64,000 nt of DNA from Calditrichia bacterium (GTDB lineage: Bacteria > Calditrichota > Calditrichia > RBG-13-44-9 > J075). The stretch covers positions 32,001 through 96,000 of the forward strand of contig JBOEGD010000012.1 in the NCBI GenBank assembly GCA_050633245.1. The letters are read 5' to 3'. The notes under the pieces were generated by a model. It saw only the letters and a list, made by a program, of their open reading frames with translations, ran no database searches and had not been told where the DNA came from. The position numbers were made by a program, and so were the translations under genes. Below, one piece after another: positions 9,352 to 64,000 of the stretch (positions are counted from its first letter, which is position 1; each line of letters starts with the position of its first letter).

Positions 9352-9602
9352 ACGGGCTCTTATCAATCGAAATTAAATTCCGGATTCTTCCGGGCTTCAA
9401 GTTAATGGGGTGACCATTCCGCACGATCTGTTCTATTTGCTTTTGTTGTCCCAAATTCTTACCATTTAATATACAATTTCCTATTCTTTCTCTGCACCAC
9501 GATTTCTAACAGAATTTTCTACAGCCTACTAAAACTCGATTGTAAAGCGTACATCAAACAAGTTCGTAATTATTTTATAATAACCATCTCCTGGAGGTTA
9601 CA

Positions 9603-10058
9603 ATGGTAAATTATACCCCGGAAACAAGAGGCAGCAAGAAAGAACCAACCACAACAGACGTGTTGGCCAAGGACATCATGCTCAAGAGCTTTGTTCATTT
9701 GAAAGAGTCTCTGACAACCGCAGAAGCTGCGCAAACGCTGTTGGATTACAAACTACCCGGTGCTCCGGTGGTTAATGAGCGGGAAGAGATTGTCGGGTTT
9801 CTTTCTGAGAAGGATTGCCTAAACCGAGTGATTAAATCGCGTTATCTAAACACGCCATCTATTCCGATATCCGAATACATGTCCACCGAGCTGGTCACCG
9901 TTTCGCCAGACAGCAGTTTGTTTTTCGTCGTTGAACTCTTTACCAAACATCCATATCATTGCTATCCCGTGGTAGAGCACAATAAAGTTGTCGGTCTGAT
10001 TTATCGTCATCATTGTTTAAAAGCAACGATGGAAACATATAGAAGGGGATTTGCGTAA
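9603..10058 (+). CDS. CBS-domain pair protein
   Basis: AKDIM...GAPVV...VGFLSEKD and EYMS...YPVV...VVGLI CBS motifs; GGAGG RBS. Confidence 0.9.
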   Translation: MVNYTPETRGSKKEPTTTDVLAKDIMLKSFVHLKESLTTAEAAQTLLDYKLPGAPVVNEREEIVGFLSEKDCLNRVIKSRYLNTPSIPISEYMSTELVTVSPDSSLFFVVELFTKHPYHCYPVVEHNKVVGLIYRHHCLKATMETYRRGFA

Positions 10059-10104
10059 CAGGATAGCGGGAAAAATTCGACAGTATTTATAAAGGAACCT
10101 CAGC

Positions 10105-11574
10105 ATGAATTTTGTATTCTCGGGCTGCATAACAGCGCTTTTTACATTGACATCGCTCGCGTTCTCTCAAGGCAGCGGTAGGATAGACCTGAACAGCCTC
10201 GAGAATTATGCTAATCAGTCCCGACCATCTTATATCTTCAAAGACAACACACCGGCAAACAACCCGATTACCGATGCAGGAGCCACCCTCGGGAGGGTTT
10301 TGTTCTACGATAAAAGGCTATCGGTAAACAATTCCGTATCATGTGCCGGCTGCCATCATCAACGGCATGCTTTTGGCGACCCCAATCAGGTCAGCACCGG
10401 TGTAAACGGTATAACAGGCCGCCATTCCATGCGGCTCATCAATACGCGCTTCGCTAGAGAATGGCGCTTCTTCTGGGATGAGCGTGCCGCCTCACTGGAA
10501 CAACAATCTACCATGCCGCTTCAGGATCACATTGAAATGGGATTTAGCGGAACAATGGGTGACCCGGAGCTCGACTCACTGTTAAACAAAATGTCGACAC
10601 TGGATTATTATTCTGTCCTCTTTGACTTCGTATATGGAGACCCGGGAATATCCGAGGAACGTATACAACTGGCAATGGCCCAGTTTATTCGCAGCATAGA
10701 ATCCTTCGACTCACGCTTCGACGAAGGGCTGACGCAAACCGGAAACATGCGCGTTAATTTTCCAAACTTCACTGAATCCGAGAATGATGGCAAGTTGCTG
10801 TTTTTGAACTTTCCGTTTTTTAATAATGACGGAGAGCGTGTTGCAGGCGGTGCAGGCTGCGCCTTTTGTCACAATCCGCCGGAGTTCAACATAAGAGCGG
10901 GTTCCGGAAATAACGGCTTTACACGCAAAATCGGCGGCGGCAAAGATTTCAGTATTACCCGTTCCCCTACACTGCGCGATATCGCAGCTGCAAACGGGGA
11001 CTTACACGGTGGACTTATGCATACGGGAGACAGGAATACCTTACAAGAAACGATCGATCATTATGATGATATCCTTATCGAGACAGGCAATTTTCGAATC
11101 GACCCGGTGTTGGTAGTTGGAGGCCGCGGCTGGCGCCTCAGGCTAACACCGGGTGAGCGAATTGCCTTGGAAGATTTCATAAAAACACTGACTGGCTCGA
11201 ACGTTTACACCGATCTTAAATGGTCGGATCCATTTGATGCAAACGGCGATTTGGAAATTACTCCACCTTCAACCACAGGCACTGAGCCACAGGCCCCTGC
11301 CGATGCCCTTACCTTTGAGCTTGCGCAAAACTATCCAAACCCATTCAATCCGTCCACTACTATTTCCTATCGTATCGGCCAGTCCAGCCGGGTAAACCTT
11401 AGCGTTTATAATATTCTGGGAATGGAAATCACCACACTGGTGAATAAATTTCAGGAAGCTGGGAGGTATGATATTCCGTTTAACGCAGAGAATTTACCGG
11501 CAGGTGTATATTTTTATCGCCTGACAGCAGACAGACAGCCGGTTGAAACCCGTAAAATGCTGCTAAGTAAGTAG
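10105..11574 (+). CDS. Di-heme cytochrome c peroxidase/MauG family protein with C-terminal secretion (T9SS/Por-type) domain
   Basis: LGRVLFYDKRLS, SCAGCH, FWDERA, CAFCH, PTLRD..MHTG; C-terminal QNYPNPFNPSTTI...GVYFYRL...RKMLLSK. Confidence 0.88.
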   Translation: MNFVFSGCITALFTLTSLAFSQGSGRIDLNSLENYANQSRPSYIFKDNTPANNPITDAGATLGRVLFYDKRLSVNNSVSCAGCHHQRHAFGDPNQVSTGVNGITGRHSMRLINTRFAREWRFFWDERAASLEQQSTMPLQDHIEMGFSGTMGDPELDSLLNKMSTLDYYSVLFDFVYGDPGISEERIQLAMAQFIRSIESFDSRFDEGLTQTGNMRVNFPNFTESENDGKLLFLNFPFFNNDGERVAGGAGCAFCHNPPEFNIRAGSGNNGFTRKIGGGKDFSITRSPTLRDIAAANGDLHGGLMHTGDRNTLQETIDHYDDILIETGNFRIDPVLVVGGRGWRLRLTPGERIALEDFIKTLTGSNVYTDLKWSDPFDANGDLEITPPSTTGTEPQAPADALTFELAQNYPNPFNPSTTISYRIGQSSRVNLSVYNILGMEITTLVNKFQEAGRYDIPFNAENLPAGVYFYRLTADRQPVETRKMLLSK

Positions 11575-11691
11575 AGACCCGACTGGAAGGCACTGGCTCG
11601 CCGGCATGCACCCCTGTCAACGAGCTGGTAGCGTTACTGAAAAAGCAGTAGGTTATTATTGTAGGCATGACACGAAGAAAGGAATTTCAGA

Positions 11692-13164
11692 TTGAATTTT
11701 GCACGCTTGAAGTATATCCCGACAGCATTAGTAGTGCTTACATCGCTCGCCTTCTCTCAAGGCAGCGGTACCATCGACCTGAACAGTCTCGAGAATTACG
11801 CTGATCAGCCCCGCCCATCCTATATTTTAAAAGACAACACTCCGGCAACCAATCCGCTTACCGATGCCGGAGCAACCCTCGGCAGAGTATTATTTTATGA
11901 TAAGAGGCTCTCGGTAAACAATTCCGTTAGCTGTGCCAGTTGCCACCATCAACAATTTGCTTTTGGTGATCCTGACCAGGTGAGCACAGGCGTAAATGGC
12001 ATTACCGCCCGCCATTCAATGCGACTCATCAATACACGTTTTGCCGAAGAAAAAAAATTCTTTTGGGATGAACGTGCCGCTTCGCTGGAAGAACAAACAT
12101 CGATGCCGCTTCAGGATCATATCGAGATGGGATTTAGCGGAACGATGGGTGATCCAGAGCTCGATTCGCTGCTAAATAAAATGTCTGCACTGGAATACTA
12201 TTCGATTCTCTTCAAATTTGTATATGGAGACGCAGCCATATCCGAGGCACGCATACAGCTGGCAATGGCTCAGTTTATTCGCAGTATAGAGTCTTTTGAC
12301 TCACGCTTCGATGCCGGACTGACACAAACTGGCGACATAGACGCGTATTTCCCGAACTTCACTAAGGCTCAGAACTCCGGAAAACAGCTGTTTCTGGGAA
12401 CACCGGTATTTAATAATGATGGCGAGCGTATTGCGGGAGGCGCCGGATGTGCATTATGCCATACTCCTCCGGAGTTCGACATTAAACCAGGCTCCGGGAA
12501 TAACGGCTTTACTCGTAAACTTGGCGGTGGAAATGATTTTAATATTACCCGTGCTCCCACCCTGCGCGACGTTGTCAAATTCAACGGCGCTTCGAACGGT
12601 GGACTCATGCATACGGGTGGCATGTTCAGCATAATCCATGTGATCGACCATTATGATAAGATTGAGATCGTGGAGGGCAACGAACAAATCGACTCGGTAC
12701 TGGTGAGAAGCGGCAGGGGTTGGAACCTCCTGCTCTCTACTCAAGAGGTTAGAGATCTGTTCAGATTTATTGCAACACTGGGCGGTACAAATGTTTATTT
12801 CAACCCCAAGTGGTCCAATCCATTCGACGCAAACGGCGATTTGGAAGTGATTCCACCAACCACCACAGGCATTGAGCCTCAGGCTCCTGCTGATGCACTG
12901 ACTTTTGAGCTGATGCAGAACTATCCCAACCCATTCAATCCATCGACGACGATCTCCTACCGAGTCAGTCAATCCAGCCGGGTAAACCTAACCGTCTATA
13001 ACATTTTGGGAAAGGCAATTGCCACACCGGTAAATGGATTTCAGGAAGCGGGGCGCTACAGCATTTCGTTCAACGCGGCTGATTTAACAGCCGGAATTTA
13101 TTTTTATCGTTTAACTGCGGACGGCCAGCAGGTCGCAACCCGAAAAATGCTGCTGAGTAAGTAA
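11692..13164 (+). CDS. Second di-heme cytochrome c peroxidase/MauG family protein with secretion CTD (tandem paralog)
   Basis: Same architecture (SCASCH, CALCH, NYPNPFNPST); long stretches near-identical to 10105..11574; TTG start. Confidence 0.88.
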   Translation: MNFARLKYIPTALVVLTSLAFSQGSGTIDLNSLENYADQPRPSYILKDNTPATNPLTDAGATLGRVLFYDKRLSVNNSVSCASCHHQQFAFGDPDQVSTGVNGITARHSMRLINTRFAEEKKFFWDERAASLEEQTSMPLQDHIEMGFSGTMGDPELDSLLNKMSALEYYSILFKFVYGDAAISEARIQLAMAQFIRSIESFDSRFDAGLTQTGDIDAYFPNFTKAQNSGKQLFLGTPVFNNDGERIAGGAGCALCHTPPEFDIKPGSGNNGFTRKLGGGNDFNITRAPTLRDVVKFNGASNGGLMHTGGMFSIIHVIDHYDKIEIVEGNEQIDSVLVRSGRGWNLLLSTQEVRDLFRFIATLGGTNVYFNPKWSNPFDANGDLEVIPPTTTGIEPQAPADALTFELMQNYPNPFNPSTTISYRVSQSSRVNLTVYNILGKAIATPVNGFQEAGRYSISFNAADLTAGIYFYRLTADGQQVATRKMLLSK

Positions 13165-50996: not shown

Positions 50997-52166
50997 ATGC
51001 CGTCTTTTCCGAAGTTCACTCCTCGTCCAGATATGATCAGCGGGTCCGTTTTTGAAGCCTTTCTGCCGAAGATGCAGGAAAAAGGAGACGATCTGGTGCG
51101 TCTGCACCTCGGCGATTCGTTTATCTCGCCGTCTTATCCCCTACCGCTACAAGAGGAATTCAGCAAATCTTTTCCCGGATTTAACCGCTATTGCAATACC
51201 TTTGGCATCGCGCCATTGCGCAAGGCACTGGCGGACAAGCTAAACAAGACGAACAATCTTCCGGTGACTTCGGAAAACATCATGGTGTCTTCCGGCGGCT
51301 CGAATGGACTCAGCGCAATTACGCAGGCAATTCTTCAGGAAGGCGATGAAATTCTTATTCCCACCCCATACTGGCCCTTCTTTCGCGGCATGGTCGACCT
51401 GAGCGGTGCATCGAAAAAAGAGATCCCCTTCTACACCCGCTTATATGAAGAACCGAATCTCAATATTTTCGAACTCCTAGAATCCCATCTTTCCGAGCGA
51501 ACAACGGCCATTTATCTGAATAGTCCGAACAATCCCAGTGGATTCGTATTGTCCGCAGAGCAACTTCAGGTCATTGCAAACTTTGCCATCAAGCATAATC
51601 TCTGGGTGATTTCTGATGAAGCGTATGATGGCATGACTTATGGCAAGCCTCATCATTCAATTGCCGCGTTTCCCGGCATGTTCGAACGCACCTTCAGCGT
51701 CTACACCTTCTCGAAGCTTTACATGTTTGCCGGAATTCGTCTTGGCTATGTTGCCGCCGAGGCACATAATCTGAAGCAAATCAACAAGATCCTTGTCCAC
51801 CAAATTTACGGTGCCAATACGCCGGGACAACAAATGCTGCTGGAACCACTCCGCACACAAGAACAATGGAGCCGCACATTCGTGCAACATTGCGAGACCG
51901 TGCGTGATCGCATGCATCAATCGCTACAACCCGAGCATCATATTCCCGACGGTGCGTATTACTTTTTCTTTTCGATTGAGCCGTATTTAAATGGACGTGC
52001 TTATATGGACGTCATCCACGAGTTAATGGATGCCGGTGTTTCCGTGGCATTGGGGAAAGACTTTGGGCAGGATTATGAACACTATATTCGAGTGTGCTAC
52101 GCCGCCGAGAACTCAGATCGCATTGAACTGGCCACCCGGCGACTGAACACCGTCTTATGCGGTTGA
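50997..52166 (+). CDS. PLP-dependent aminotransferase class I/II
   Basis: NSPNNPSG, SDEAY, TFSK...GIRLGY. Confidence 0.9.
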   Translation: MPSFPKFTPRPDMISGSVFEAFLPKMQEKGDDLVRLHLGDSFISPSYPLPLQEEFSKSFPGFNRYCNTFGIAPLRKALADKLNKTNNLPVTSENIMVSSGGSNGLSAITQAILQEGDEILIPTPYWPFFRGMVDLSGASKKEIPFYTRLYEEPNLNIFELLESHLSERTTAIYLNSPNNPSGFVLSAEQLQVIANFAIKHNLWVISDEAYDGMTYGKPHHSIAAFPGMFERTFSVYTFSKLYMFAGIRLGYVAAEAHNLKQINKILVHQIYGANTPGQQMLLEPLRTQEQWSRTFVQHCETVRDRMHQSLQPEHHIPDGAYYFFFSIEPYLNGRAYMDVIHELMDAGVSVALGKDFGQDYEHYIRVCYAAENSDRIELATRRLNTVLCG

Positions 52167-53105
52167 TGGCGCTTCCGGGTCGGCTCCGGTCGCATAAAAA
52201 TCGTCAATTTTCACCTCATCAATATAAGGACCAGCCGGAGTTGTATCGCCTCCCAGCCTCTCATACATGGACGTTTCTCCACCGTAAAGCGCCAGACGGA
52301 AAATCATTCTCACCAGCATAAACAGCTGATGCAACACGAATAGCAGCAGTATGATAAAAGCGCTGGGTGCAGAAAGAGCATCTGCTATCGGGGCATAACC
52401 TAATACCAACAGGATACTCAATAAATAGAATGCAAATCCCAGTGTTATGGTGCGGCGAATGTTGGATAGAACGAACCCGGTCCCCCGACGTAAGGCCTTC
52501 CAAGCGGATCGTTCATCGGTAAAGACGGTGTAGATTCTCGAATAGTCAAAAATAACAAAGGCAATGATTAGAATAAATCCACGCCAGAAAACCCGAAAGC
52601 CGGACAGCCAGTACTCCACTGAACCGGGAACATCATCTCCGTAAAAAATCTTCGGCAGATAAGCCCAAATAGCGTCTGACAAGAGCAAAAGCCCAGCCAC
52701 CGGAATAAACAGAAGTCCAAGCCGGAAGAACCGACCAAAAAACTTGCCACAACCTCCCCAAAACGTATCCCGGCTATAGGCTGCGTTTGATGAAAAGACC
52801 GCAAAAGCTCCACCGGAGAGGAAGAGGTTTACGATCCAATAAACAAGTGCCACAACAGCCAGCATCACAATAATAATAGAGAACATGGACTGATTGCTCT
52901 TAAAGAACTCGTGAACCAACGGGAAATCGAGTCCGTTGGACAAATTTCTGACCGCTCCGCTATCTCCCAAAAAGCTACCGAGTCCGATACGCATGGGCAA
53001 CATCAACAAAAAGGCAAAAAGCAGATTGGCCAAATAGAAAGTCACCAGAATTCGTTTGTTTGCCAGTACCTTGGCGAGACCGGCTTTTAAGCTCGAGAAT
53101 ACCAT
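52155..53105 (-). CDS. Multi-pass membrane protein
   Basis: About 6 hydrophobic helices; co-oriented with the M1 peptidase. Confidence 0.7.
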   Translation of the reverse strand: MVFSSLKAGLAKVLANKRILVTFYLANLLFAFLLMLPMRIGLGSFLGDSGAVRNLSNGLDFPLVHEFFKSNQSMFSIIIVMLAVVALVYWIVNLFLSGGAFAVFSSNAAYSRDTFWGGCGKFFGRFFRLGLLFIPVAGLLLLSDAIWAYLPKIFYGDDVPGSVEYWLSGFRVFWRGFILIIAFVIFDYSRIYTVFTDERSAWKALRRGTGFVLSNIRRTITLGFAFYLLSILLVLGYAPIADALSAPSAFIILLLFVLHQLFMLVRMIFRLALYGGETSMYERLGGDTTPAGPYIDEVKIDDFYATGADPEAPSTA

Positions 53106-53120
53106 TTTTATGTCCTATAA

Positions 53121-53183
53121 AGTTCAAGGTTCAAGGTTCAGAGTTCAAGGTTCTTAGGCGTCTTTGAACTCAGAACTTTGAAC
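53121..53183. repeat. Heptamer repeats (GTTCAAG)n facing inverted (TTGAAC)n copies
   Basis: AGTTCAAGGTTCAAGGTTCAGAGTTCAAGGTTC...TTTGAACTCAGAACTTTGAAC in the intergenic gap. Confidence 0.65.
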
Positions 53184-53188
53184 GGTGT

Positions 53189-55273
53189 TTACAGAAGAAA
53201 GAACGACGGCCAGTTAATCATCTCCGGTTGGTCCAAAATGAACTGCATCCAGAATAAAAATCGCGCCGACGTTTTATTCAGTCCCAACTTCGGAGGCGAA
53301 ACCATCTTGCTGTTATTCGCATAATTCGTGTCAAGCGTAAGCACATGATCCGGATCTACAGCCGCCTCAACCAGTTTAGCTTCTTTGAGGTATTTGAATT
53401 TCTTCCAGCGCGATTTGCCATCCCATTGTTCACGCAGCGTTTCACCATCAGAGAACGTCACTTCAACCTCAACCGGATGCGTAAAATCGCCCAGACGTCT
53501 CACCCGAACTTCTGAAAAGTGCAGTTTCTTCGTCAACGAGTCGGGTTCAAAAGGCGTCTCCAGCGAATCCAGCGTGCTGTCGATATCGGATAAGCTCTCG
53601 TCAAAGTCGAAGCCTTTTGGAGCCTTATACTTTTTTGTTCTGACATAGCTAATAGAGTAGTCTACTGTTTTTTCGCTAAAGAGAGCCTGTTGGAAAAAGC
53701 TGTCCAGATTTTTACCAGAGACCTCATTTGCAATATCCATAAAGTCCTGGGTGGTCGGATGTTTAAATCGCCAGCGCGTAACATAGGTGTTGATAATCTT
53801 GCGCATGGTCTCTTTGCCAACGATGTTGCGAAGTGTTGAAAGCAGCGTTCCCGAACGTGAATAGCTGGAAATACCGTAGCTCGCATTTGAATAATACTCC
53901 CACGCATTTTGTACAACGGGGTCGGCATCGGGAAAAATTCGGTAGATCATACGATGCATGTCTTCAGTATTCAGCTTGATGCCGAAAACATCGAGCATAT
54001 CGCCAGTCGGGCCATATTCAGCGTTCATTACCTCAATTTCGGTGAAGGTGTTTATTCCTTCATCCAGCCAAGCTTCTTCAAATTCATTTGAAGCCAACAG
54101 GTGATACCAGAAGTTATGACCAAATTCATGGATAATCACGTGCTCCAAAGAGCGAAACCCTTCCATCAAACCGTAGCTGGTTCCGGCAGTGATAAGCGTA
54201 GGGTATTCCATACCGCCGGTGGCTTCTGCACCGCGTCGCGGATCGATTACAGTTAAGTTGGGAAATGGATAATCTCCATACCAATCCTGAAAATAGCGAA
54301 CGGCCACTTTGGCGGCTTCTACATGACGCGGCCCCTGGGCGACGTGATCTTTCTGAACCAGTGCGCGAATATCAACATCCTGCTCACGGCCACGAAACTC
54401 CACATAATCCGAGCTTGCAGTCCAGGCAAAGTCATGCACATCCTCAGCGTGATAATAATGTGTTGCCGTCCCATCGTCATTTTGGTTAACTTCGACTTCC
54501 AGTCCGGTAGAACCAACAATGCGATCATCCGGCAGCGTAATCCAAACGTTGTAGACGCCGTAGTCGGCAAAGAATTCAGAATTCAAGTGAAATTGATGAC
54601 TATTCCATCCTTCATCAGTGAATTTGGCGACTTTGGGAAACCACTGTCCAGCAAACACATAATCTTTCATTGCACCGGTTCGCGCGACGGCCGGCTCCGG
54701 TAGAAGAGCTGTAAAGTCTACGAACAACGTTACAGTTTCTCCCGGCTCAACAGCTTCGGGAAGCGGCAGACGGAAATAACTCTTATCATATTCATCCGGG
54801 GTATCTGGCTGCATAAACTCCATACCAGCAGTAATATCGATCCCCGGCACGCGGCGCGGTTCTTCCTTACGCTGGATATTTAAATAGCGTTTTGCGTCAG
54901 CCGTCGATTCTTTAGGAAGCATGACAATCTGTTTGATTTCACTAAATCCCCAGCCATCTTCTTCACCCATCTTGCTATTACGGTGAACACCACCGGATTC
55001 CAGCATGAATGTCGAACGGTTATTTCGGAAGCCATTCATATAAAGGTGAAAACGCATTTCGGAAACAGGTTCATCAGATGCATTCTTCCAATGAATGAGC
55101 TGTCGACCTCGTAGTGAGTGTGTTTCCACATCTAAATCGACACGAATATCGTAATTTGCTATGCGTGGACTTAGCGGTGTTTCAAAAAGAGTTGGTTGCG
55201 CAAAAGAGAGGCTGCTGCAAAGAAAAAAGGCAACGCCAAGCCAGCGTAGATAAAGAACGTGATTTTCAAACAT
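53189..55273 (-). CDS. M1-family zinc aminopeptidase, exported
   Basis: QWFPKV, AEDVHDFAW, GGMEYP, HEFGH...WLDEG, HPTTQDF. Confidence 0.92.
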   Translation of the reverse strand: MFENHVLYLRWLGVAFFLCSSLSFAQPTLFETPLSPRIANYDIRVDLDVETHSLRGRQLIHWKNASDEPVSEMRFHLYMNGFRNNRSTFMLESGGVHRNSKMGEEDGWGFSEIKQIVMLPKESTADAKRYLNIQRKEEPRRVPGIDITAGMEFMQPDTPDEYDKSYFRLPLPEAVEPGETVTLFVDFTALLPEPAVARTGAMKDYVFAGQWFPKVAKFTDEGWNSHQFHLNSEFFADYGVYNVWITLPDDRIVGSTGLEVEVNQNDDGTATHYYHAEDVHDFAWTASSDYVEFRGREQDVDIRALVQKDHVAQGPRHVEAAKVAVRYFQDWYGDYPFPNLTVIDPRRGAEATGGMEYPTLITAGTSYGLMEGFRSLEHVIIHEFGHNFWYHLLASNEFEEAWLDEGINTFTEIEVMNAEYGPTGDMLDVFGIKLNTEDMHRMIYRIFPDADPVVQNAWEYYSNASYGISSYSRSGTLLSTLRNIVGKETMRKIINTYVTRWRFKHPTTQDFMDIANEVSGKNLDSFFQQALFSEKTVDYSISYVRTKKYKAPKGFDFDESLSDIDSTLDSLETPFEPDSLTKKLHFSEVRVRRLGDFTHPVEVEVTFSDGETLREQWDGKSRWKKFKYLKEAKLVEAAVDPDHVLTLDTNYANNSKMVSPPKLGLNKTSARFLFWMQFILDQPEMINWPSFFLL

Positions 55274-55517: not shown

Positions 55518-56171
55518 ATGACTCCTGCTCAAGAGCAAATGCCCCTTGTTGATTTGTTAAAACTATGCTGCGACAGAAGCTCACCAAAACACGGTGAAGC
55601 CTGGCTTGAGTTTATGGAGCGCTATCGCCCGGTAATGGAAAACGCCATTTTAAAGCGCTGTAGATCCTGGGACGCACGTCAGCGACTTCCGCTTCAGCTT
55701 AAAGATGTGGCAAACGACATTCTCGGACGCGTTTTAGAACAACTGGTCGATCGCGATTTTAAAACATTGAGCACCTTTCGAAACCCGGACAGTCAGGCTA
55801 TGTTTTGTGCCTATCTCATACAAATCTCCAGAAATGCCGCTTCGGCCTATTTAAAGAAATGGAAATTCGATCGTATGACCGGAGAAGATCCGATAGATTG
55901 GCAGTCAGACAAACATGCTCAGGATGACAGCTTAGCATGGGAAATTTATGAATCACGCGTCTCTGAACTACGCGACACACGCAAGCGGCGCAGGCCGGGT
56001 AACCTCGAGCGCGATATCCATATTTTTCTGCTCTACCGATGGTCTGATTTCGACCAGAGTATGATTCTCTCTCATCCCTATCTGCGAAACATTGGTCATC
56101 GCGTTGTCGACCTCGTTGCAAATCGCATGGGCGAAAAAATTAAGCAGGGATACCAAACGCCTGATGCTTAG
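55518..56171 (+). CDS. Divergent ECF-type sigma factor-like protein
   Basis: Region-2-like AWLEFMERYRP...DVANDI...LVDRDFKTLSTF...FCAYL.QISRNA; atypical region 4 (ERDIHIFLLYRW). Confidence 0.7.
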   Translation: MTPAQEQMPLVDLLKLCCDRSSPKHGEAWLEFMERYRPVMENAILKRCRSWDARQRLPLQLKDVANDILGRVLEQLVDRDFKTLSTFRNPDSQAMFCAYLIQISRNAASAYLKKWKFDRMTGEDPIDWQSDKHAQDDSLAWEIYESRVSELRDTRKRRRPGNLERDIHIFLLYRWSDFDQSMILSHPYLRNIGHRVVDLVANRMGEKIKQGYQTPDA

Positions 56172-56183
56172 GACAGATATAGA

Positions 56184-56588
56184 ATGAATGTTTCACCGCT
56201 GCAAACAGGAATGCTTCTTGCACTTTTAGAGCTGCAACGCAATGGCAAAGTCATTTCAGTAGACTTGTCAGATGCAGAGCAGGCCGTACTGCACAATCTT
56301 GAAGAAGGTTTTGCGTTTCTTGCTGATCAATCCGATACGGTCAGCTTAAAGTCACTGCTAGACGGCATCACCTGTAGCGAAGTTCCCTGCCTTCGTCGCA
56401 AAAGTGAGTTATTGGCAATGATGTTTTTGATCGACTCGAGCACTGACGGTGAGGCAACAGAGCAAAATCGACAAGATTTTTTTCGCATGATGAATTCGTG
56501 CTATACTTGTTTTCAGGAATTCAGCGATATTATGCGCGGTTATTATCAGATAATCGATGCGCATGCCGAACAACAAAACGCAAAATAA
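56184..56588 (+). CDS. Small soluble protein with degenerate zinc-finger anti-sigma-like motif
   Basis: LKSLLDG...FFRMMNSCYTCFQEF (CxxC); directly downstream of the sigma gene. Confidence 0.45.
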   Translation: MNVSPLQTGMLLALLELQRNGKVISVDLSDAEQAVLHNLEEGFAFLADQSDTVSLKSLLDGITCSEVPCLRRKSELLAMMFLIDSSTDGEATEQNRQDFFRMMNSCYTCFQEFSDIMRGYYQIIDAHAEQQNAK

Positions 56589-56677
56589 CTTTTTTGAGAG
56601 ATTTTTAGCGCATTCTTCATCTTTATATACGAACAGCTCAAAAACTGGCATGGGATCCCCACTGCCGGAAAGATTGA

Positions 56678-57880
56678 ATGAATGCGAAAGAGAAGAAAAT
56701 GGACTCACTTTTTAAGCTCAGTCATAGCGAATTAGCAGATTATATTCGCAGCACCGCCAGTGCACCTTTATTAAAGCGTGTAGAAAACCTGCGCGGCGAA
56801 GATGCAAGTTATCGTCTATTATTCGACATGATAGATAACGTGCGCTATGGCGCCGGTATTCCGTCAGCGCCTCGGACAGAGCAAAGACCCATCCCTTTGG
56901 AACCCATTAACATAGACCACAACACACTGGAAGGCTTGCTAAGCGGCAACGCCACGGTGGCTGACGGACGAAGTTTTCTAAGTCAGTTGATGTCTTCCCG
57001 CCGCTACTACCAGCAGTTTTTTCTGCACCTGTTGGAAATGGACCCACAGCGTCAATCAGAGATCATCAGCGATCTCGGTGAAGTTGTGCAGGTGCGAAGC
57101 AATCGCGAACTGGTAGAAGACATTATTGGCATTGTTCCTAAAACCATGAAGTCGCCCGGTGGCTTTACGCTACCAGATTTCCTTAACAACTTTGGCTGGC
57201 GTTTCGCTACGGCAATCCCTGCATTACTGGTTTTGCTGCTGGTCGGTAATGCGTTTATGGCAGGCCCGCTCGGTAAATTTGATGTTCGGGAGAATGCTCC
57301 AAATGGCTATCAGCACAATCTGGTTAATGCGACGCGCGGGGCAACACAGTCGCATTTCGATGTCAACAACCTGCTGCGTCAGGTTCAATCTCTCAATGGC
57401 CTTCTGGTAACCAGCTCAAGCGATTATGATACCAGTGAGTACGATGAAGCAATAGCAATGCTTAGCAAGGGCAAAGGTATCGCCCAGAAACTTCGCAGGG
57501 AATCGATTGCAGCAATGGAAGACAGCCTATCTCACCAACCGGATTCCAACCTGGCAAATCTATTAATGGAAGCGCGTAAGGTAACGCAAGACTATCACTT
57601 CTATCTCGGAATATATCATCTGGTTCGCAATAAGCCCGGCGATGCGCAAAAAGCCGTCGTGCTGTTAACCGATGCAAAACTTCTCGCCGAAGGCTATGCA
57701 CTTGACACAGCCCATAGAGAGAGCTATTATTTAGGATTGGCAAATGCATTCGCCGACGATAAAGCAACCGCTCTAAAACTGCTGCGCGCGATACCGGAGA
57801 ACTCACCCTATTCTGTACGTGCCAACACCGCTATCGAAAGACTTGGACTCAACTTTTTTGAGCGCATGATAGACTGGTAA
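56678..57880 (+). CDS. Single-pass membrane anti-sigma-like protein with external TPR-like domain
   Basis: IDHNTLEGLLSG...FLSQLMSS; TM AIPALLVLLLVG; ATRG; YHFYLGIYHL and ESYYLGLA TPR-like helices. Confidence 0.55.
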   Translation: MNAKEKKMDSLFKLSHSELADYIRSTASAPLLKRVENLRGEDASYRLLFDMIDNVRYGAGIPSAPRTEQRPIPLEPINIDHNTLEGLLSGNATVADGRSFLSQLMSSRRYYQQFFLHLLEMDPQRQSEIISDLGEVVQVRSNRELVEDIIGIVPKTMKSPGGFTLPDFLNNFGWRFATAIPALLVLLLVGNAFMAGPLGKFDVRENAPNGYQHNLVNATRGATQSHFDVNNLLRQVQSLNGLLVTSSSDYDTSEYDEAIAMLSKGKGIAQKLRRESIAAMEDSLSHQPDSNLANLLMEARKVTQDYHFYLGIYHLVRNKPGDAQKAVVLLTDAKLLAEGYALDTAHRESYYLGLANAFADDKATALKLLRAIPENSPYSVRANTAIERLGLNFFERMIDW

Positions 57881-57914
57881 GCGCGTGGACAGAATTGTTT
57901 TGCATTTTGGTTTT

Positions 57915-57980
57915 GTCACCTCGAGCGCAGTCGAGAGGCTGGTAAGCTCTCAATAGGGCTTCGACTCCGCTAAGCCTGAC
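57915..57980. repeat. REP-like palindromic element
   Basis: GTCACCTCGAGCGCAGTCGAGAG...CTTCGACTCCGCTAAGCCTGAC, resembling the GTCA..GAGCG.AGTCGAAG intergenic repeats of FCB genomes. Confidence 0.55.
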
Positions 57981-58093
57981 CAAATTAGTCGCAAGGTACT
58001 GTCAAATAATACTGTCTTAGCGCTTAAACAAAACAGCTTTAAACTATACATATTCCAACTCAATGCTTTCGCCTGCATCTGGAGGGAAATCGT

Positions 58094-59878
58094 ATGCACA
58101 TTTCCAAAACGGGTCGTCACTTACCCATCCGCCCGGAATTGTTGAGCGTCGTCTGTGGTATTCTATGGGCTGCAGCTCTACTTCTGCTCAGCACGTCCAC
58201 AATGCTGACTGCACCCGGTAATTCTACCTTACTGTTTGATTTTGTTCAATCCGCGCTTCCCGGATATTCCCTAACCGCTATTGGCATTCTTATTGGCGTT
58301 TTTTGGGCCTTTGCCGCAGGATATATTTTTGGCTTTCTGATCGGTTTTGTCTACAAAATGCTCATGCGCCGCAAATTGCGCAATGTCAGCTCATCATTGT
58401 TAAAAATCAATCCGTCTGAGCAACCCTTTGTTATTCAGGAAGGCATCGGAGAGAAACCGTATACCATTGCCTTTGTTGCAAATCCATTCCTGCTTGTTCC
58501 GCAAGAAGACGGAACGAATGCCGTTCAGATTGATCCAATCATGGCTAAAAAGGAACTATTCCATCAGGTTGTGGTGCGCTGTTTACGCAGCTTCGCAAAC
58601 AACGGGCTACTGCGTCAGCCGGAAATTTTTAATCGCCTGAGGCTGGTTATCTATTTCGATCCAAATATCGAGCTGGATATTTTGCGCAATCGCCCCGTTA
58701 CATTAAACGCTGATGAAGCATTATGTATCGGATACGATCCGTCAATTATTGGCCCGATTATAGATACCGAGAAAATCTACTCGTATGTAAAAGAAAGAAT
58801 TACCTCATACTGCGACGTTGTTTATATGATTTCAGCAAGCGATATCTATACGCGTTCATCTGCACGTTTTACTCAGGAAGAGACTATGTCTGAGGGTGTA
58901 AATTACAATTTTACATTTACCCCGGACACTTCAGTTTTCGAAACGCGGCGGCATGCCTGGTGTGCAAAAGTTCCCGGTGTTGTGGCATTATCTGCCTGGG
59001 ACGATCGTTTAAAAACACCAGTTCATGAATTTGCACATGCAATGTCTTCCGTAGAAAACGGCGCAATTGACGATGAATATATCGATGATACTTTTGCCAG
59101 TCTTACCCACCGCATCAACAAGCAATATCGCGTAGGTTATATCTTAAATGATGCTGCAATTGAGCAGTTGAGAAAACATGCTCCGGCCATTGTTGGTACG
59201 TTAATGCCCTTAAAGGATCGTCCATTCGCTGATAGAATAGCGTTTCTGGATAAGCTTAAAGTCGTGCTATCAGAGGAAGAACTCAATCAGTATTTAGATG
59301 TCATCCTGGAGTATGCCTTCTTTCGTCCGGTATTTTTCCTTACCGAAACGTCTATCGCCAAAATTGTAAACGCTATTGATGTTGAAAGCGATAAAGACAA
59401 AGTACGCGCAGCCACCGTGCGCATGAAAGGCAAGCGCTTCTATTCACGTAGCTTGTTCTATCGCGAATTCGCCAAAGAAATTAGCAATCGGAATCTGTTT
59501 ATGCGTTATCGCTCGCTTGTAGCACGCTTTTCGCACTTTCAGAATTATCCGGTGCCGCATGTTTTTGCACATTACAAATTGGCCGGCAGCGAGATGAAGA
59601 CGTATTATTCAGATCGCAATCGCAGCGATAAAGAAATGTCATGGCGATCGTTTTCACCAGAGCGGAGCTCCACGCGGCTTTCCTGTATTATGGACATTGC
59701 TGTATACGGCTATCGTTTCGATAAATTGCTGTTCGATTGGATGTACGACCGCCTCTATGTGAAAATGAATCGACCGGCAACAGCCTGCAGCCATCCGGCA
59801 CCTCCCGGAAACGCGGCCGAAGATCGTACCCATACCAATATTCAGATCAATCTGCTAAATGAGGAGAATCGTTCATGA
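58094..59878 (+). CDS. Membrane-anchored zinc metallopeptidase-like protein
   Basis: Two N-terminal TMs; VHEFAHAM...DDEY (M64-like HExxH-to-DEY spacing); C-terminal SCIMD (Met-turn-like). Confidence 0.7.
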   Translation: MHISKTGRHLPIRPELLSVVCGILWAAALLLLSTSTMLTAPGNSTLLFDFVQSALPGYSLTAIGILIGVFWAFAAGYIFGFLIGFVYKMLMRRKLRNVSSSLLKINPSEQPFVIQEGIGEKPYTIAFVANPFLLVPQEDGTNAVQIDPIMAKKELFHQVVVRCLRSFANNGLLRQPEIFNRLRLVIYFDPNIELDILRNRPVTLNADEALCIGYDPSIIGPIIDTEKIYSYVKERITSYCDVVYMISASDIYTRSSARFTQEETMSEGVNYNFTFTPDTSVFETRRHAWCAKVPGVVALSAWDDRLKTPVHEFAHAMSSVENGAIDDEYIDDTFASLTHRINKQYRVGYILNDAAIEQLRKHAPAIVGTLMPLKDRPFADRIAFLDKLKVVLSEEELNQYLDVILEYAFFRPVFFLTETSIAKIVNAIDVESDKDKVRAATVRMKGKRFYSRSLFYREFAKEISNRNLFMRYRSLVARFSHFQNYPVPHVFAHYKLAGSEMKTYYSDRNRSDKEMSWRSFSPERSSTRLSCIMDIAVYGYRFDKLLFDWMYDRLYVKMNRPATACSHPAPPGNAAEDRTHTNIQINLLNEENRS

Positions 59879-60525
59879 CACCGTTTCATCCAAAATTCAG
59901 ACAGTTGTTATTGGCAGATAAAGATCATCAAAAAGCTGGATTAACCCCAAGCCTGCTGCACGAGTTCGAATGCCTTGGCGTTAAGCTCTCCTATATTCTG
60001 AACTACCCGCCAAACAATGCGCAGATCGAAGTTTACCTGTTAACCAATGATGGCTACAACAACATCAGTTATGTGCTACAGGGGAATAACGATTGGGGCA
60101 TCTTAAGTGACGTTCTTGGTGGAGTTATCGATCAGCCATTCCGCGGAGCACTCAGCTATCTTTCGCATATTGAAACACAGCTGCTCCAGTGGAATGATAT
60201 TGAGGGGGCACGCATATTCAAAGACCATCGCGCTCTCATCCTGCAGGAAACGAGTGTGAGTAGCCACCCAGTTGCCCTCGGAGATGGCCCGACACTGGAA
60301 GAGCTCCGAAGCGAGATTACATTTTTTCGCAACAACTTTCTGGTAAACTACGATACAGTGCATCAGCACTGGGTAGGCATACAGAAACGATCCGCAAACA
60401 AGCGTTATCTAAGCACGTCTACCGGCCTAAATCTATTTGGATTTTTCATTTCGCTATTTTTAACATTCTTTCCAAGACGAGAGCAAGAAATCAGAGTTCA
60501 GTACCCTTCAGGTGAGGCAAAATAA
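59875..60525 (+). CDS. Hypothetical protein with C-terminal TM helix
   Basis: GAGGAG RBS; ATGA overlap with the upstream stop; C-terminal LFGFFISLFLTFF. Confidence 0.65.
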   Translation: MTPFHPKFRQLLLADKDHQKAGLTPSLLHEFECLGVKLSYILNYPPNNAQIEVYLLTNDGYNNISYVLQGNNDWGILSDVLGGVIDQPFRGALSYLSHIETQLLQWNDIEGARIFKDHRALILQETSVSSHPVALGDGPTLEELRSEITFFRNNFLVNYDTVHQHWVGIQKRSANKRYLSTSTGLNLFGFFISLFLTFFPRREQEIRVQYPSGEAK

Positions 60526-63451
60526 ATTGCAGCGCGATCTCCTACATTGTCTGCTGGTATTGCTGCTCGGTTTGATGCTGACATCTTGCGAGCAACAAAC
60601 TGCCGCCGAGGCGATAAAGCTTGAACCACTATCCCCGGAGGAAGAATACCGTTCCCTGTTATCGGCGTCGGACGCTACCTTTGAGCGTGCAGAAAAAGTA
60701 GTTACGGAAAATCCACTGTATTTCAGACAGCGCGTTTATTATCAGCTTCTCGACAAAGCGCTTTCCATGAAAATAACTGGGGATGATAGTCTCGCAGAGG
60801 CAACATTTTCTGAGGCCAGGCAGATGGCGCAAATCTTCCAAAGCAAGCTGGATGATTCGTTTCTAATGGTACAGCACCGCTTTTCGACAACACTCAGCAA
60901 CAAAGATATTCATAAAAAGCTACAGGTCGATTCATTATATAAGCTGGGCAACGACTCGCTTCGCAAGAAGAACTATGCGGCGGCAGATAAATTCTTTGAG
61001 AATTCGATTCGCATCGCTAAAGAGATTGGCGACCAGCGTCGGGTTGTAGATAATCACTTGCGTCAGCAGTTTATGCTCGATCGTCAAAAACGGCTGCGAG
61101 AATCGATCTCGCGAGGAAAAGAAGCGCTGAAGCTCGCCAACACCATTGGGTATCACTATCGCGCAGCTTGGATATTGCACTACATGGCTCTTTCCAGTGA
61201 ACTGCTTGGCGAATATGCTGCAGCAGTCGACTACTCCAGCCGCGCCGCGAAAGCGGCTGGAATAACCAAAGACTATCGCTGCCTGTCCGATACTCAATGG
61301 CTTGAAGGCATAGCGCTGTATCGGTTGGGACGCTTTGCAGAGTCTGTTGAGACACTCAATCATGCACTCGAAGCCAGCATTCAACGAGAAAGCCTTTCTA
61401 TACAGGCCAAGATCCACAATTCACTGGCGAACTCGCATAAAAGCCTGGGCAATTATTCTAACGCCGAAGAAAACTACCTGGACTCCTGGAAACTATTCGA
61501 AAAGCTGGATCGTCAAAAAGACATTGCAATTACGCAGGCAAATCTTGCTGACCTCTATCGCGTAATGGGTGCGCAGGATGAAGCACTTAAAATGTTTAAG
61601 ATGGCCTATTTGTATTACGAAGCCAATGAGCGGCATTACGACCGTATCGCGATTGTGAAGCGCATGGGCGATACCTATCGTAATCAGGGCAATTTGAAAA
61701 TGGCCCGGACAAGTGGGCGCACTGCTCTGGACGAGATTCTTGTGCAGGAGAAAAGTGGCTCTGATGCCTACGCCCTGCTAAAACCGGAGGCTTACCTCAG
61801 CCTTGGCGATGTTGAACGTGATTTCGACAATACATCGGCAGCAATGCCCCTTTACCAGGAGGCATTGACCGCTTTTAAACTATTGGACAATCGGTTTGGG
61901 ATTCTGGAGGGTTATCTAAAAATAGGTGATTTGCATTTTCGCGACGGTAATAACTTCAAGGCAGAATCGTCATTAAAGAAGGCACGGGGAATTGCCGCCA
62001 GCATCCGGCACCCACGGGCACTGGCACTGGCCGATTTTTCTTTAGGCAAACTATGGACGCAGAAAAAGGAGTTCAGTAAGGCAGAAAAGGCTCTGGAAAA
62101 TGCGATTGTCGGCGTGGAGCAAACCCGCAGCAACATCGAAGATGAGAATCGCCTCAACGAGCTTCAAATTAGCTACTTCGCTACGATGCAGGACATATAT
62201 GATGAGATGGTTTATCTGCAGCTACTCATGGAACAGCCCAAAGAAGCATTCTACTATTCTGAGCAGGCGCGGGCACGCTCTCTGCGAGATCTCTTGCAAA
62301 GCGAAGGCGGTTCTGCGCCAATCGGCCTTGTGAAGCCTCAAGACCTATTAGCAGCAAACACGACCCTGTTAGAATACAAATTTGTAAAAGATGATCTTAT
62401 CTGTTTTGTGGTACAAGAGAACAATTTCGCCGCCGTAAAGCTGCCCCGGCAGCGTGAACAAACCGAAGCAGCAATTCGCGGTTTTTTGACCGCAATTGGT
62501 GCCAATCACTATCAGGATTTTCTCGAAAAAACCAAGCAAGATGGTGCAGGCTACTACAACTCAATGAACCTCTCGGCGAAACAGCTATGGCAGCTGCTGT
62601 TGAGTCCGCTTGGCAAGAAACCTTTGCAGGCAGAGCACCTGATCATCGTTCCCGATGGTCTACTTCACTACCTGCCCTTTGCGGCACTGGTAGACAGCAG
62701 TAATCAATTTCTGATAGAAAAACGCATTGTTTCCTATTTGCCCGCGGCTTCTTTATTGGACAGACAAATTGGCGCGCAACCCGCTGCAGACTGGCAGCTT
62801 CTGGCTGCTGCAACGCCGGAAATGGGATTACCATTTACCCGGCAGGAAGTTGAAGCGATCGCCGGATATTTCCAAAAGAGCACTCTACTCCACTCTATGA
62901 ATGAGCTTAGCGAAGAACAACTATTGAATCATTTCAACAAACAATTCGAGGTTATTCATCTCGCCTGTCACGCAGAAATAGATGAACGCACACCGCGCTA
63001 CTCAAGTATTTTCGTGGGCCCAACCAGCGGGATTGAAAAAACAAGCCTGCTGCGCGGCAGCGAGATTAGTGACAATCGCGACGACAACAATCTAATGGCT
63101 CATGAGCTTTATCGGCTAGACTTTAGCAATACCAAGCTCATCGGGCTCTCGGCATGCAAGAGCGCCACCGGTCGCTACGTCAGCGGCGAAGGAATGATTG
63201 GTTTTATTCATCCACTGATGTCGGCAGGCGCGGAGTCTGTCCTTGCGACGTTGTGGGAGATTAGCGATGAACATACGCCCAAACTCATGCAGCTTTTCTA
63301 CGAAAACTGGATAGAGAAAAAGATGGGACGCGCCGAAGCACTCGCAAGCGCACAACGGCAGATAATTCAGGCAACAAGAGAGAATTCAAATATAAATTAT
63401 GCGCACCCTCAACTTTGGGCAGCATTTACGCTGACCGGCGCACATAACTAG
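60512..63451 (+). CDS. TPR-CHAT (caspase-like cysteine protease) lipoprotein
   Basis: Lipobox LTSC; about 10 TPRs; EQARARSL, IVPDGLLHYLPFAAL, IHLACHA (His), LSACKS (Cys), TLWEISD, HPQLWAAF. Confidence 0.92.
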   Translation: MRQNKLQRDLLHCLLVLLLGLMLTSCEQQTAAEAIKLEPLSPEEEYRSLLSASDATFERAEKVVTENPLYFRQRVYYQLLDKALSMKITGDDSLAEATFSEARQMAQIFQSKLDDSFLMVQHRFSTTLSNKDIHKKLQVDSLYKLGNDSLRKKNYAAADKFFENSIRIAKEIGDQRRVVDNHLRQQFMLDRQKRLRESISRGKEALKLANTIGYHYRAAWILHYMALSSELLGEYAAAVDYSSRAAKAAGITKDYRCLSDTQWLEGIALYRLGRFAESVETLNHALEASIQRESLSIQAKIHNSLANSHKSLGNYSNAEENYLDSWKLFEKLDRQKDIAITQANLADLYRVMGAQDEALKMFKMAYLYYEANERHYDRIAIVKRMGDTYRNQGNLKMARTSGRTALDEILVQEKSGSDAYALLKPEAYLSLGDVERDFDNTSAAMPLYQEALTAFKLLDNRFGILEGYLKIGDLHFRDGNNFKAESSLKKARGIAASIRHPRALALADFSLGKLWTQKKEFSKAEKALENAIVGVEQTRSNIEDENRLNELQISYFATMQDIYDEMVYLQLLMEQPKEAFYYSEQARARSLRDLLQSEGGSAPIGLVKPQDLLAANTTLLEYKFVKDDLICFVVQENNFAAVKLPRQREQTEAAIRGFLTAIGANHYQDFLEKTKQDGAGYYNSMNLSAKQLWQLLLSPLGKKPLQAEHLIIVPDGLLHYLPFAALVDSSNQFLIEKRIVSYLPAASLLDRQIGAQPAADWQLLAAATPEMGLPFTRQEVEAIAGYFQKSTLLHSMNELSEEQLLNHFNKQFEVIHLACHAEIDERTPRYSSIFVGPTSGIEKTSLLRGSEISDNRDDNNLMAHELYRLDFSNTKLIGLSACKSATGRYVSGEGMIGFIHPLMSAGAESVLATLWEISDEHTPKLMQLFYENWIEKKMGRAEALASAQRQIIQATRENSNINYAHPQLWAAFTLTGAHN

Positions 63452-63492
63452 GGTGCAGAACAGCCCTTCAACAGCAACAGGAGGAACGAGCA

Positions 63493-63879
63493 ATGAATGA
63501 AGATCTTTTATTGCTGGCCGACACCACAACCAACCATGAAGGTGAAGAGCCACCGCCAACCGACATGTTTTATACACGTGCAGCTCTTCAGCGCTCCAGC
63601 GCTTTAGATGCCATGCGTCTTGGCGTCTCCATCGGCATTGCCTGGATGGTATTATTTTTACTTATTATTCCCGGTGCTCTCATGTCCGGAGGCAATGCCT
63701 CACTCTTGGTCGTGCAGGCATTTTACCCGGGATTTACGGCCGGAGCAAGCGGGATTCTATTTGGCCTGGCACTTAGCTTTGTATATGGCACCATCGGTGG
63801 GATTGCCATCGGTTCGCTATATAATTCGCTCGTCCAGCGTGAAGTTTTAGCTGGTGAGAATTACGAAACATATGGTTAG
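63493..63879 (+). CDS. Two-TM membrane protein
   Basis: AGGAGG RBS; TM-FYPGF-TM architecture similar to the N-terminus of 58094..59878. Confidence 0.7.
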   Translation: MNEDLLLLADTTTNHEGEEPPPTDMFYTRAALQRSSALDAMRLGVSIGIAWMVLFLLIIPGALMSGGNASLLVVQAFYPGFTAGASGILFGLALSFVYGTIGGIAIGSLYNSLVQREVLAGENYETYG

Positions 63880-63904
63880 TCAAATCAATTGATTGGAGTA
63901 AAAA

Positions 63905-64000
63905 ATGCCTCTAAATTATGATAGCGAATCAAAGCCAAAACGCGGTGGAAAAATCAAGCCGCCAGATGATCAGGAAGATCGGCCAACACGCCGCGGAAAT
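63905..64000 (+). CDS. Start of a further ORF (runs off the window)
   Basis: GGAG RBS, then ATG 63905 MPLNYDSESKPKRGGKIKPPDDQEDRPTRRGN, open to the window end. Confidence 0.5.
   Translation, partial: MPLNYDSESKPKRGGKIKPPDDQEDRPTRRGN

Follow-up and report, generated by a model that had tools for sequence, protein, structure and literature searches.

A diverged ECF-type sigma factor gene and exported TPR-CHAT protease genes in one conserved cluster of Calditrichota, a possible split relative of the DdvS/DdvA envelope switch

What joins a sigma factor, two anti-sigma-like proteins, a membrane metallopeptidase and exported caspase-like proteases in one gene cluster, and could the proteases have a part in releasing the sigma factor? 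This question is raised by a stretch of 64,000 nt (the window) from an uncultured, marine-type Calditrichia bacterium, corresponding to bases 32001-96000 of contig JBOEGD010000012.1 (C12) in a genome of 6.3 Mb and 59 contigs. Seven co-oriented open reading frames (ORFs), g1 to g7, are located on the plus strand at 55518-63879. The initial annotation, made from the window alone, had counted at least eight co-oriented genes; seven of them are inside the window, and the eighth, g8, begins at 64098, which is 98 nt beyond the window end. Across related genomes, the constant core of the cluster consists of the sigma factor, the small CxxC protein g2, the transmembrane (TM) TPR protein g3 and a TPR-CHAT protease, and the metzincin cassette around g4 is an add-on. 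By analogy with studied systems, we consider it somewhat more probable than the contrary that the cluster is a split, elaborated and protease-operated relative of the DdvS/DdvA envelope switch of Myxococcus.

The conserved core of the cluster

The first gene, g1 (55518..56171, plus strand), encodes a protein of 217 aa that had been annotated as a divergent sigma factor. The family to which it belongs agrees with this assignment, and from profiles and model g1 is predicted to be a strongly diverged extracytoplasmic function (ECF)-type sigma factor. A word-index search with g1 returned 4 proteins only, and an exhaustive HMMER search recovered a family of 155 cluster representatives, 107 of which had an E no higher than 1e-10. 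Among the 111 full-length members in alignment A1, the sigma70-ECF model TIGR02937 was matched by 67 (best 1.6e-15) and Sigma70_r2 by 25. Searched against solved structures, the family profile had only ECF sigmas among its nine top matches (AlgU, RpoE, SigW and BldN-type; best E 4.8e-5), and the alignments to AlgU and SigW spanned both domains, through sigma4 (query 20-207). The AlphaFold2 (AF2) model, with a predicted local distance difference test (pLDDT) value of 88.4, showed two helical domains with a low-confidence linker between them, and sigma2 alone superposed on region 2 of sigmaE with a TM-score of 0.70. These are the only domains, taken as sigma2 and a putative sigma4; region 1.1 and region 3 are absent. 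Twelve of the 111 family members also weakly matched the NCBIfam model of the type III-E CRISPR-associated RpoE-like sigma (best E 9.5e-7), for which general ECF similarity alone may account.

Downstream of g1 are g2 (56184..56588, plus strand), which encodes a small CxxC protein of 134 aa that appears ZAS-like, and g3 (56678..57880, plus strand), which encodes a single-pass membrane protein of 400 aa. No TM segment was predicted in g2, and the protein is taken as soluble. In alignment A2, 9 of 17 g2 sequences carried a C-terminal HxxxCxxC motif with an upstream Cys (C..HxxxCxxC), three more orthologues, read by frame, had the full HxxxCxxC, and Pfam zf-HC2 matched one of the 17 (E 0.048). No relative of g2 was found in PDB or PHROGs, and its best Atlas match scored 0.81, which is a lead only. 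The g3 protein has no signal peptide and is predicted to consist of a cytoplasmic N-domain of about 170 aa, a TM segment at 172-190 and a periplasmic TPR-like C-domain. The C-domain gave weak TPR matches and no DUF1822 match in the Pfam scan, and the Atlas look-alikes of g3 were TPR proteins of 250-340 aa from Bacteroidota, Rhodothermota, Balneolota and Ignavibacteriota, with scores of 0.94-0.96. The N-domain begins with LxxYLxG, which we take to resemble the pattern of an anti-sigma domain. Among the 17 g3 orthologues in alignment A3, about 12 share an Arg, frequently within LRG, that is located roughly 20-40 residues past the TM helix. This juxtamembrane Arg is a candidate cut site.

Two genes of the cluster encode TPR-CHAT proteases. 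The first, g6 (60512..63451, plus strand), encodes 979 aa with Pfam matches to CHAT (8.7e-62) and TPR_12 (9.7e-24), preceded by a signal sequence and an LTSC lipobox at residues 23-26. The catalytic residues annotated earlier are intact, with His820 encoded by CAC at 62969..62971 and Cys882 by TGC at 63155..63157 on the plus strand, and the assignment as an exported lipoprotein likewise held. Reading downstream past the window end, as had been suggested, revealed the second gene, g8 (window coordinates 64098-67391, plus strand), whose product of 1097 aa has a Pfam CHAT match of 4.4e-60, a signal peptide (TM 3-21) and a C-terminal anchor (TM 1073-1091). Both g6 and g8 are thus predicted to be extracytoplasmic with an intact His-Cys dyad. 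The His and Cys were invariant in 14/14 CHAT proteins of these loci. The profile made from these 14 proteins matched DdvA (8rot_B) with E 4.4e-13 over chain residues 834-949, including H862 and C907, and DdvA was the sole CHAT-region match among the 60 solved chains listed; g6 alone matched PDB entries in the TPR only.

To describe conservation, the loci of relatives were inspected from both ends of the cluster. Relatives of g1 were present in 23 of 61 related genomes, including 14/15 genomes of the same family and 5/5 of family f5. Among the 18 loci inspected, which were those on longer contigs out of 32 listed matches, g1 was directly followed by a g2-like ORF in every case and then by a gene for a g3-like single-pass protein in 17, and a CHAT gene was found in 13 by tblastn and in one extra locus by Pfam. 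Two arrangements recurred. Type A (6 loci) has the order g1-g2-g3-g4-(g5)-lipoprotein CHAT-g7, and in type B (7 loci) g1-g2-g3 precede a CHAT gene of the g8 type, without a metzincin gene; the C-terminal TM anchor was present in 7/7 type-B CHATs. The window locus corresponds to type A with an appended type-B CHAT.

Among species-representative genomes, relatives of g4 occurred at 65 loci, all from different species. Fourteen loci from other phyla were set apart by record label before counting, and the records counted were labelled Calditrichota, KSB1 or "Cytophagia" or had no taxon label, and had enough flank. A sigma gene was located within 5 kb upstream of g4 on the same strand in 35/38 cases, with the sigma 6 kb upstream in one of the misses. 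A CHAT gene was downstream of g4 in 36/37 cases, and both genes were present in 28 of the 30 loci with both flanks. The genes therefore co-occur strictly, in agreement with the neighbourhood conservation that had been proposed as a check. Between species, the proteins of the cluster share just 25-45% identity and the neighbouring genes vary from locus to locus; because the gene order recurs in dozens of species, the arrangement is far beyond chance.

Several variants of the core were observed. The genome itself carries a second, type-B sigma-g2-g3-TPR-CHAT locus on contig C18 at 70348-76321 (L031:7349-13322, minus strand). This locus is flanked by genes for a protein with caspase C14 and a DUF7379 hydrolase, a NACHT and FGE-sulfatase protein, and a protein of 425 aa that is CHAT-like by eye and has no Pfam match. 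In total, 13 CHAT matches were found in this genome. Two further large TPR-CHAT genes are located beside genes for HxxxCxxC proteins on C4 at 77919-82887 (L130) and on C15 at 78961-82601 (L131); the C4 pair gave only weak matches to Sigma70_r2 (E 0.011) and zf-HC2 (E 0.041).

In one other genome, the sigma-g2-g3 trio was duplicated as a unit. L017 (G003:C54; 2971-8730) contains three sigma genes and two tandem g2-g3 pairs before a single g4-g5-CHAT-g7 cassette. In L028 (G003:C8; 7999-10389, minus strand), a protein of 796 aa without Pfam domain ends in a g1-like sigma domain and is encoded behind an AAA ATPase gene and before a g2-like gene, with no g3 or CHAT nearby. Downstream of the trio in L021 (G011:C12; 5293-7329) is the gene for a divergent, cytoplasmic-looking CHAT protein of 678 aa, which has TCAD7 and DUF7363 domains and lacks an obvious export signal. 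It ties the trio there to conflict systems predicted as 'ternary complex' systems. In L018 of family f5 (8436-12776), genes for a TonB-dependent receptor resembling SusC and a SusD-like lipoprotein come directly after the type-B locus; ORFs of similar sizes occupy this position in L019, L027 and L029, the Pfam run having been made on L018 alone.

The metzincin cassette

The product of g4 (58094..59878, plus strand; 594 aa) combines a two-helix membrane hairpin with a domain that resembles the igalysin/M64 metzincins. In the AF2 model (pLDDT 87.5), the hairpin comprises residues ~14-98 (helices 14-38 and 62-98) and the alpha/beta domain residues ~107-560. This domain is interrupted by a helical insert of ~150 aa (332-486), which is found in this and a few other copies and is absent from most homologues. 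The best structural matches in VIA-align were BF3526, BACOVA_00663 and the IgA peptidase of Thomasclavelia ramosa (IgAse), with Z of 14.7, 14.6 and 13.3, root-mean-square deviations of 3.9, 3.8 and 3.6 Å, and 220, 223 and 228 aligned residues, respectively, and the adamalysins/ADAMs followed with Z 9-9.8. The top Foldseek rows agreed (E 2.5e-3, prob 1.0). The HEFAH motif, with zinc-binding and catalytic residues, is encoded at 59024..59038 on the plus strand. Across the 40 sequences of alignment A4, H311, E312, H315, G323, D327, Y329, M533 and D534 were invariant, and so was the motif spacing HExxH-x7-G-x3-D.

Igalysins are described as having HExxHxxxGxxD followed by a Glu, a "switch" Tyr and a C-I-M Met-turn (PMC12237041). 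The exact motif is not matched by g4. The protein does keep the Met-turn, C531-I-M533, and D327-E328-Y329 past the active-site helix, which correspond to C606-I-M608 and D550-E551-Y552 of IgAse, with the Asp as the likely third zinc ligand. In contrast, the two C-terminal-helix cysteines of the structural zinc site of IgAse are missing from g4. No Pfam domain, Peptidase_M64 included, was matched by g4 at E up to 0.1, and none is precomputed for any of 48 word-index homologues. Because the fold and the Met-turn fit but the exact motif and the Pfam M64 model fail, g4 is regarded as igalysin-like yet a new branch.

The orientation of g4 was predicted from charge and model. In the 37 of 40 members with two TM segments, the mean number of K+R was 3.0 in the N-terminal flank, 2.7 in the C-terminal flank and 1.2 in the loop, and in the model the N-terminal strand pairs with the strand following TM2. 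Because of this bias and of the strand pairing across TM2, both ends are placed in the cytoplasm, and the metzincin domain most likely faces the cytoplasm on the hairpin, whereas known igalysins are secreted or surface enzymes. The HEFAH protein had been annotated as a membrane metallopeptidase of a trans-envelope cascade. The metallopeptidase fold stands; instead of being exported, the domain is predicted to lie on the cytoplasmic side, tethered by its hairpin, and the gene is accessory, being absent from type-B loci. An intramembrane site-2 (M50) protease was also considered for g4 and was ruled out by fold and topology, the HExxH being in a soluble metzincin domain behind the hairpin; three matches to true M50 genes are found elsewhere in the genome.

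Two smaller genes accompany g4. The first, g5 (59875..60525, plus strand), encodes 216 aa of no recognised family (Pfam, NCBIfam, PHROGs), with a short hydrophobic C-terminal tail that remained under the TM threshold used and one sub-significant PADLOC row (BnzB, E 0.004). As annotated at the outset, it overlaps both neighbours, sharing ATGA with g4 at 59875-59878 and containing the GTG start of g6 at 60512, 14 nt within g5; from the sequence, g5 is predicted to be translationally coupled to g4 and g6. The second, g7 (63493..63879, plus strand), encodes a two-helix hairpin protein of 128 aa (TM 45-63 and 88-106) that is paralogous to the N-terminus of g4 (37-41% identity, tblastn). Both hairpins resemble the NCBIfam 'bacteriophage holin' model NF037947 'holin_4' below its cut-off of 70 bits (g4 hairpin 42.8 bits, g7 37.2 bits), and neither matched PHROGs. 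A prophage lysis cassette was ruled out, the holin matches being sub-threshold and phage genes being absent nearby.

The cassette was less widespread than the core. Matches to g4 were present in 18/86 genomes of the phylum, g5 was recognisable in 14 of the 65 g4 loci (phmmer), and g7 followed the CHAT gene in 23 of the 65. Relatives of the g4 domain in Acidobacteriota, Planctomycetota, Binatia, Methylomirabilota and Actinomycetota had a sigma gene in 0/10 and a CHAT gene in 0/10 cases; since these relatives have neither, the metzincin branch is wider than the module. The loci with a g4 catalytic-domain relative and without sigma or CHAT were L096-L098, L103, L105-L107, L109, L112, L124 and L126, and include Streptomyces and Thermomonospora.

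A possible protease-operated switch and its alternatives

The closest precedent is DdvS/DdvA of Myxococcus xanthus, in which an ECF sigma is paired with a fused ZAS-TM-TPR-CHAT anti-sigma (PDB 8ROT/8RW5; PMC11506125). DdvS/DdvA is so far the only studied sigma switch with an extracytoplasmic caspase-like protease domain. According to that report, the TPR-CHAT of DdvA shields the protein from RseP, and its authors propose signal-induced CHAT autoproteolysis as the site-1 step; in its account the signal is unknown. The cluster described here has the same set of elements, namely an adjacent gene for an ECF-type sigma, a CHCC/ZAS-like element, a single-pass element and a periplasmic TPR-CHAT with a His-Cys dyad, and the CHCC ligand set reported for the cytoplasmic domain of DdvA is the C plus HxxxCxxC found in 9/17 g2 sequences. 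The proposed logic, with CHAT as the site-1 step, is also that put forward in the DdvA report. However, ZAS, TM and TPR-CHAT are in one chain in DdvA and are split here over at least three proteins (g2, g3 and g6/g8). The sigma family is far more divergent than DdvS, two CHAT paralogues and a cassette of metzincin, g5 and hairpin protein are added, and the hosts are Calditrichota and KSB1, with no CBASS or CRISPR beside the locus. In the parts of the DdvA report drawn on here, DdvA-like proteins are given for Myxococcota and one Comamonas only. A full-text literature search, which excluded table S7 of the DdvA report, found no paper on a split form, and that report alone joined TPR-CHAT, periplasm and sigma factor. 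The initial annotation did not cite it and took the system as new: the split form appears to be new, and the combination of an exported TPR-CHAT with an ECF sigma and anti-sigma is not. Because DdvS/DdvA already couples an exported TPR-CHAT to an ECF sigma, the cluster is a variant and not a wholly new logic.

Other known systems are more distant. The type III-E Craspase (Cas7-11/Csx29/Csx30/RpoE) also couples a TPR-CHAT to an ECF-type sigma and an inhibitor-like protein. However, no CRISPR or nucleotide-sensor gene was found among the eight proteins in Pfam, NCBIfam and PADLOC scans, as had been noted from the window, and no CRISPR array or cas gene among the neighbours inspected. The CHAT is exported and Csx29 is cytoplasmic, and the Csx29 model NF041237 gave 38.3 bits against a cut-off of 300. 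Target RNA cannot be the activating signal. Classical regulated intramembrane proteolysis (DegS/RseP-RseA and PrsW/RasP-RsiW) likewise involves a membrane anti-sigma, a periplasmic protease acting first and a zinc protease acting later. It differs in that the site-1 candidate here is a caspase-like CHAT encoded in the locus and the zinc protease of the locus is a soluble-type metzincin on a hairpin and not an intramembrane M50. Finally, computational work has predicted caspase/EACC2 conflict systems in which an ECF sigma and a DUF1822 TPR protein take part (Kaur et al., eLife 2021, PMC8195603). The association of a caspase-fold peptidase with an ECF sigma and a TPR protein is shared; as described there, the predicted systems are cytoplasmic multi-domain STAND/EACC systems, unlike the periplasmic protease and the g3 without DUF1822 of this cluster.

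By analogy with these systems, we infer the binding and cleavage steps, their order, the signal and the output as follows. At rest, g1 would be kept at the inner membrane by the cytoplasmic N-domain of g3 together with the ZAS-like g2, and the periplasmic TPR-CHATs would be held there by a lipid tether (g6) or a C-terminal helix (g8). Binding of a protein or peptide ligand to the TPR arrays would activate g6 and g8, which would cut the periplasmic side of g3 as site-1 proteases. The g3 stub would then be cleared by the RseP-type protease of the genome, and the freed sigma would transcribe its regulon, probably including the cluster itself. At type-A loci, which bear the cassette, g4 with g5 and g7 may clear the stub instead of RseP, and g4 is perhaps linked to the periplasm via the hairpin loops of g4 and g7. 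A more specific version appears unlikely to us: a relay of ligand-gated periplasmic CHAT and cytoplasm-facing metzincin, joined through the shared hairpin, would take the place of the classical site-1 and site-2 proteases and release an unrecognised ECF branch from a soluble ZAS-like and a TM-TPR anti-sigma.

Modelling the sigma with both partners had been suggested at the outset, and gave weak support to an association of the g3 N-domain with the sigma. In one job, g1, g2 and g3(1-175) were predicted together, with the g3 N-domain as the scored partner (g2 was not scored). The median score was 0.33 (runs 0.42, 0.31 and 0.33), with a partner pLDDT of at least 66 and contact agreement between runs of at least 18%, and the best control, in which the sigma was replaced, reached 0.11, the others giving 0.01 and 0.00. 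Because the sigma-replaced control scored 0.11 against 0.33, the placement of the g3 N-domain in the model depends on the sigma. Of 80 solved complexes, 58 passed the mark for this score, as did 2 of 110 mismatched pairs, and scores up to 0.60 comprised just 7 of the 80 solved complexes plus both passing mismatched pairs.

A number of observations weigh against a protease-operated switch of the DdvS/DdvA kind. A weak pass such as that of the g1, g2 and g3 N-domain prediction is more often wrong than right unless the prior likelihood is high. For g1 alone, no sigma model was matched in Pfam and NCBIfam at E up to 0.1, the region-4 model Sigma70_r4_2 was matched by just 1 of the 111 family members, and the top Foldseek rows for the g1 model (sigmaE, AlgU, CnrH and SigW) had E of 0.06-0.5, above 0.05. 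The g2 of the window has CxxC only, with Met replacing the His ligand, the cysteines are lost in 7 of the 17 aligned g2 sequences, and neither g2 nor the g3 N-domain fits an anti-sigma model or anything in PDB. A fused g3-CHAT form was not found among the longer proteins matching g3, which is weak evidence. No CHAT gene was seen nearby in 4/18 sigma loci (L015, L016, L026 and L028), of which L015 and L016 belong to a single genus, whereas the flanks of L026 and L028 are short. The topology of g4 is based on charge bias and model. Self-regulation of the cluster by g1 is unsupported because the regions before g1, g4 and g8 yielded no common promoter motif. The protease step of the precedent is itself unproven, since the dyad mutants of DdvA behaved like the wild type in unstimulated cells (PMC11506125).

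The proteases could instead be the output of the sigma and not its relay. Here, g1, g2 and g3 would be an ordinary sensor and the proteases among g4 to g8 its targets with no part in sigma release, forming an inducible set for proteolysis at the envelope and membrane that would serve to turn over proteins, forage for peptides or remodel the surface. ECF sigmas commonly regulate neighbouring genes. The spacers of 213 nt before g4 and 218 nt before g8 (63880..64000, plus strand, for the in-window part of the latter) have room for promoters. The window locus is located among peptidase genes, SusC/SusD-like uptake genes follow the family f5 loci, and the metzincin cassette is dispensable to the core. 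However, the CHAT gene keeps its place beside the trio over two phylum-level groups while other neighbours vary, a pattern that suits a functional component better than a regulated gene. DdvA, which is the closest CHAT of solved structure, itself belongs to an anti-sigma, and in one locus only 21 nt separate g3 and g4, which are therefore co-transcribed there. Promoter searches with bipartite (-35/-10 style) motifs and 7-mer enumeration in 20, later 38 and 43, sequences upstream of g1, g4 and g8 yielded only AT-rich words above shuffles, which also speaks against separate sigma targets. A sigma-70 consensus scan of the cluster found promoters at chance (12 versus 12.0 expected), and a terminator consensus scan found no plus-strand terminator in the spacers. 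On balance, we place proteases as mere output on the unlikely side.

A role in conflict or abortive infection, in which the TPR-CHATs would sense an invader or competitor protein, the hairpins of g4 and g7 with the cytoplasmic metzincin would damage membrane or proteins of the own cell and the sigma would amplify expression, is quite improbable. The regulon of DdvS is reported as a defence island (PMC11506125), and caspase systems that include both an ECF sigma and a TPR protein have been noted computationally (PMC8195603). Caspase C14, nSTAND-CHAT, NACHT-FGE and TCAD7-CHAT genes, of the sort that characterise predicted conflict systems, flank the C18 locus and several loci of relatives, and the hairpins resemble the holin model. 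Against this, the holin matches are below the cut-off and PHROGs gave none, no PADLOC model was matched above noise by any of the eight proteins, and no mobile, defence or phage genes were found around the window locus. In the DdvA report, just a subset of DdvA-like pairs is near defence genes (PMC11506125). It would be extremely improbable that the adjacency is meaningless and that unrelated genes came together by chance. No shared promoter motif or experimental link joins the genes, but their order is kept in dozens of Calditrichota/KSB1-type species at the low identities given above, with overlapping start and stop codons, and because of this conservation chance adjacency is excluded. The split DdvS/DdvA-like switch thus remains the reading that we prefer.

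Surroundings of the locus and significance

Upstream of g1 and divergent from it, at 52155-55273 on the minus strand, are the genes for a secreted M1 peptidase (694 aa) and a multi-pass membrane protein of 316 aa, and the same pair is located upstream of the cluster in L017. Downstream of g8 are a gene for an M3 oligoendopeptidase F and then genes for very large secreted proteins. Several of these, at window coordinates 69569-78324 of contig C12 (L032), are repetitive (1012 and 1171 aa among them), and two proteins have C-terminal tails that resemble, by eye, the sorting tails of the type IX secretion system (T9SS). The 213-nt spacer before g4 contained no convincing candidate for a small exported-peptide gene.

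For the protein families concerned, g1 represents an ECF-type sigma branch that is overlooked by standard single-sequence searches. Furthermore, g4 adds a new, probably cytoplasmic and membrane-tethered branch to the igalysin metzincins, a group otherwise known as secreted enzymes only, and shares with g7 a common holin-like hairpin module. If true, the two-protease relay across the membrane would be of a kind not described before. As the parts are split and individually expressible, whether CHAT makes the first cut is directly testable, and the logic of the switch would be kept in both Calditrichota and KSB1, phylum-level groups about which little is known.

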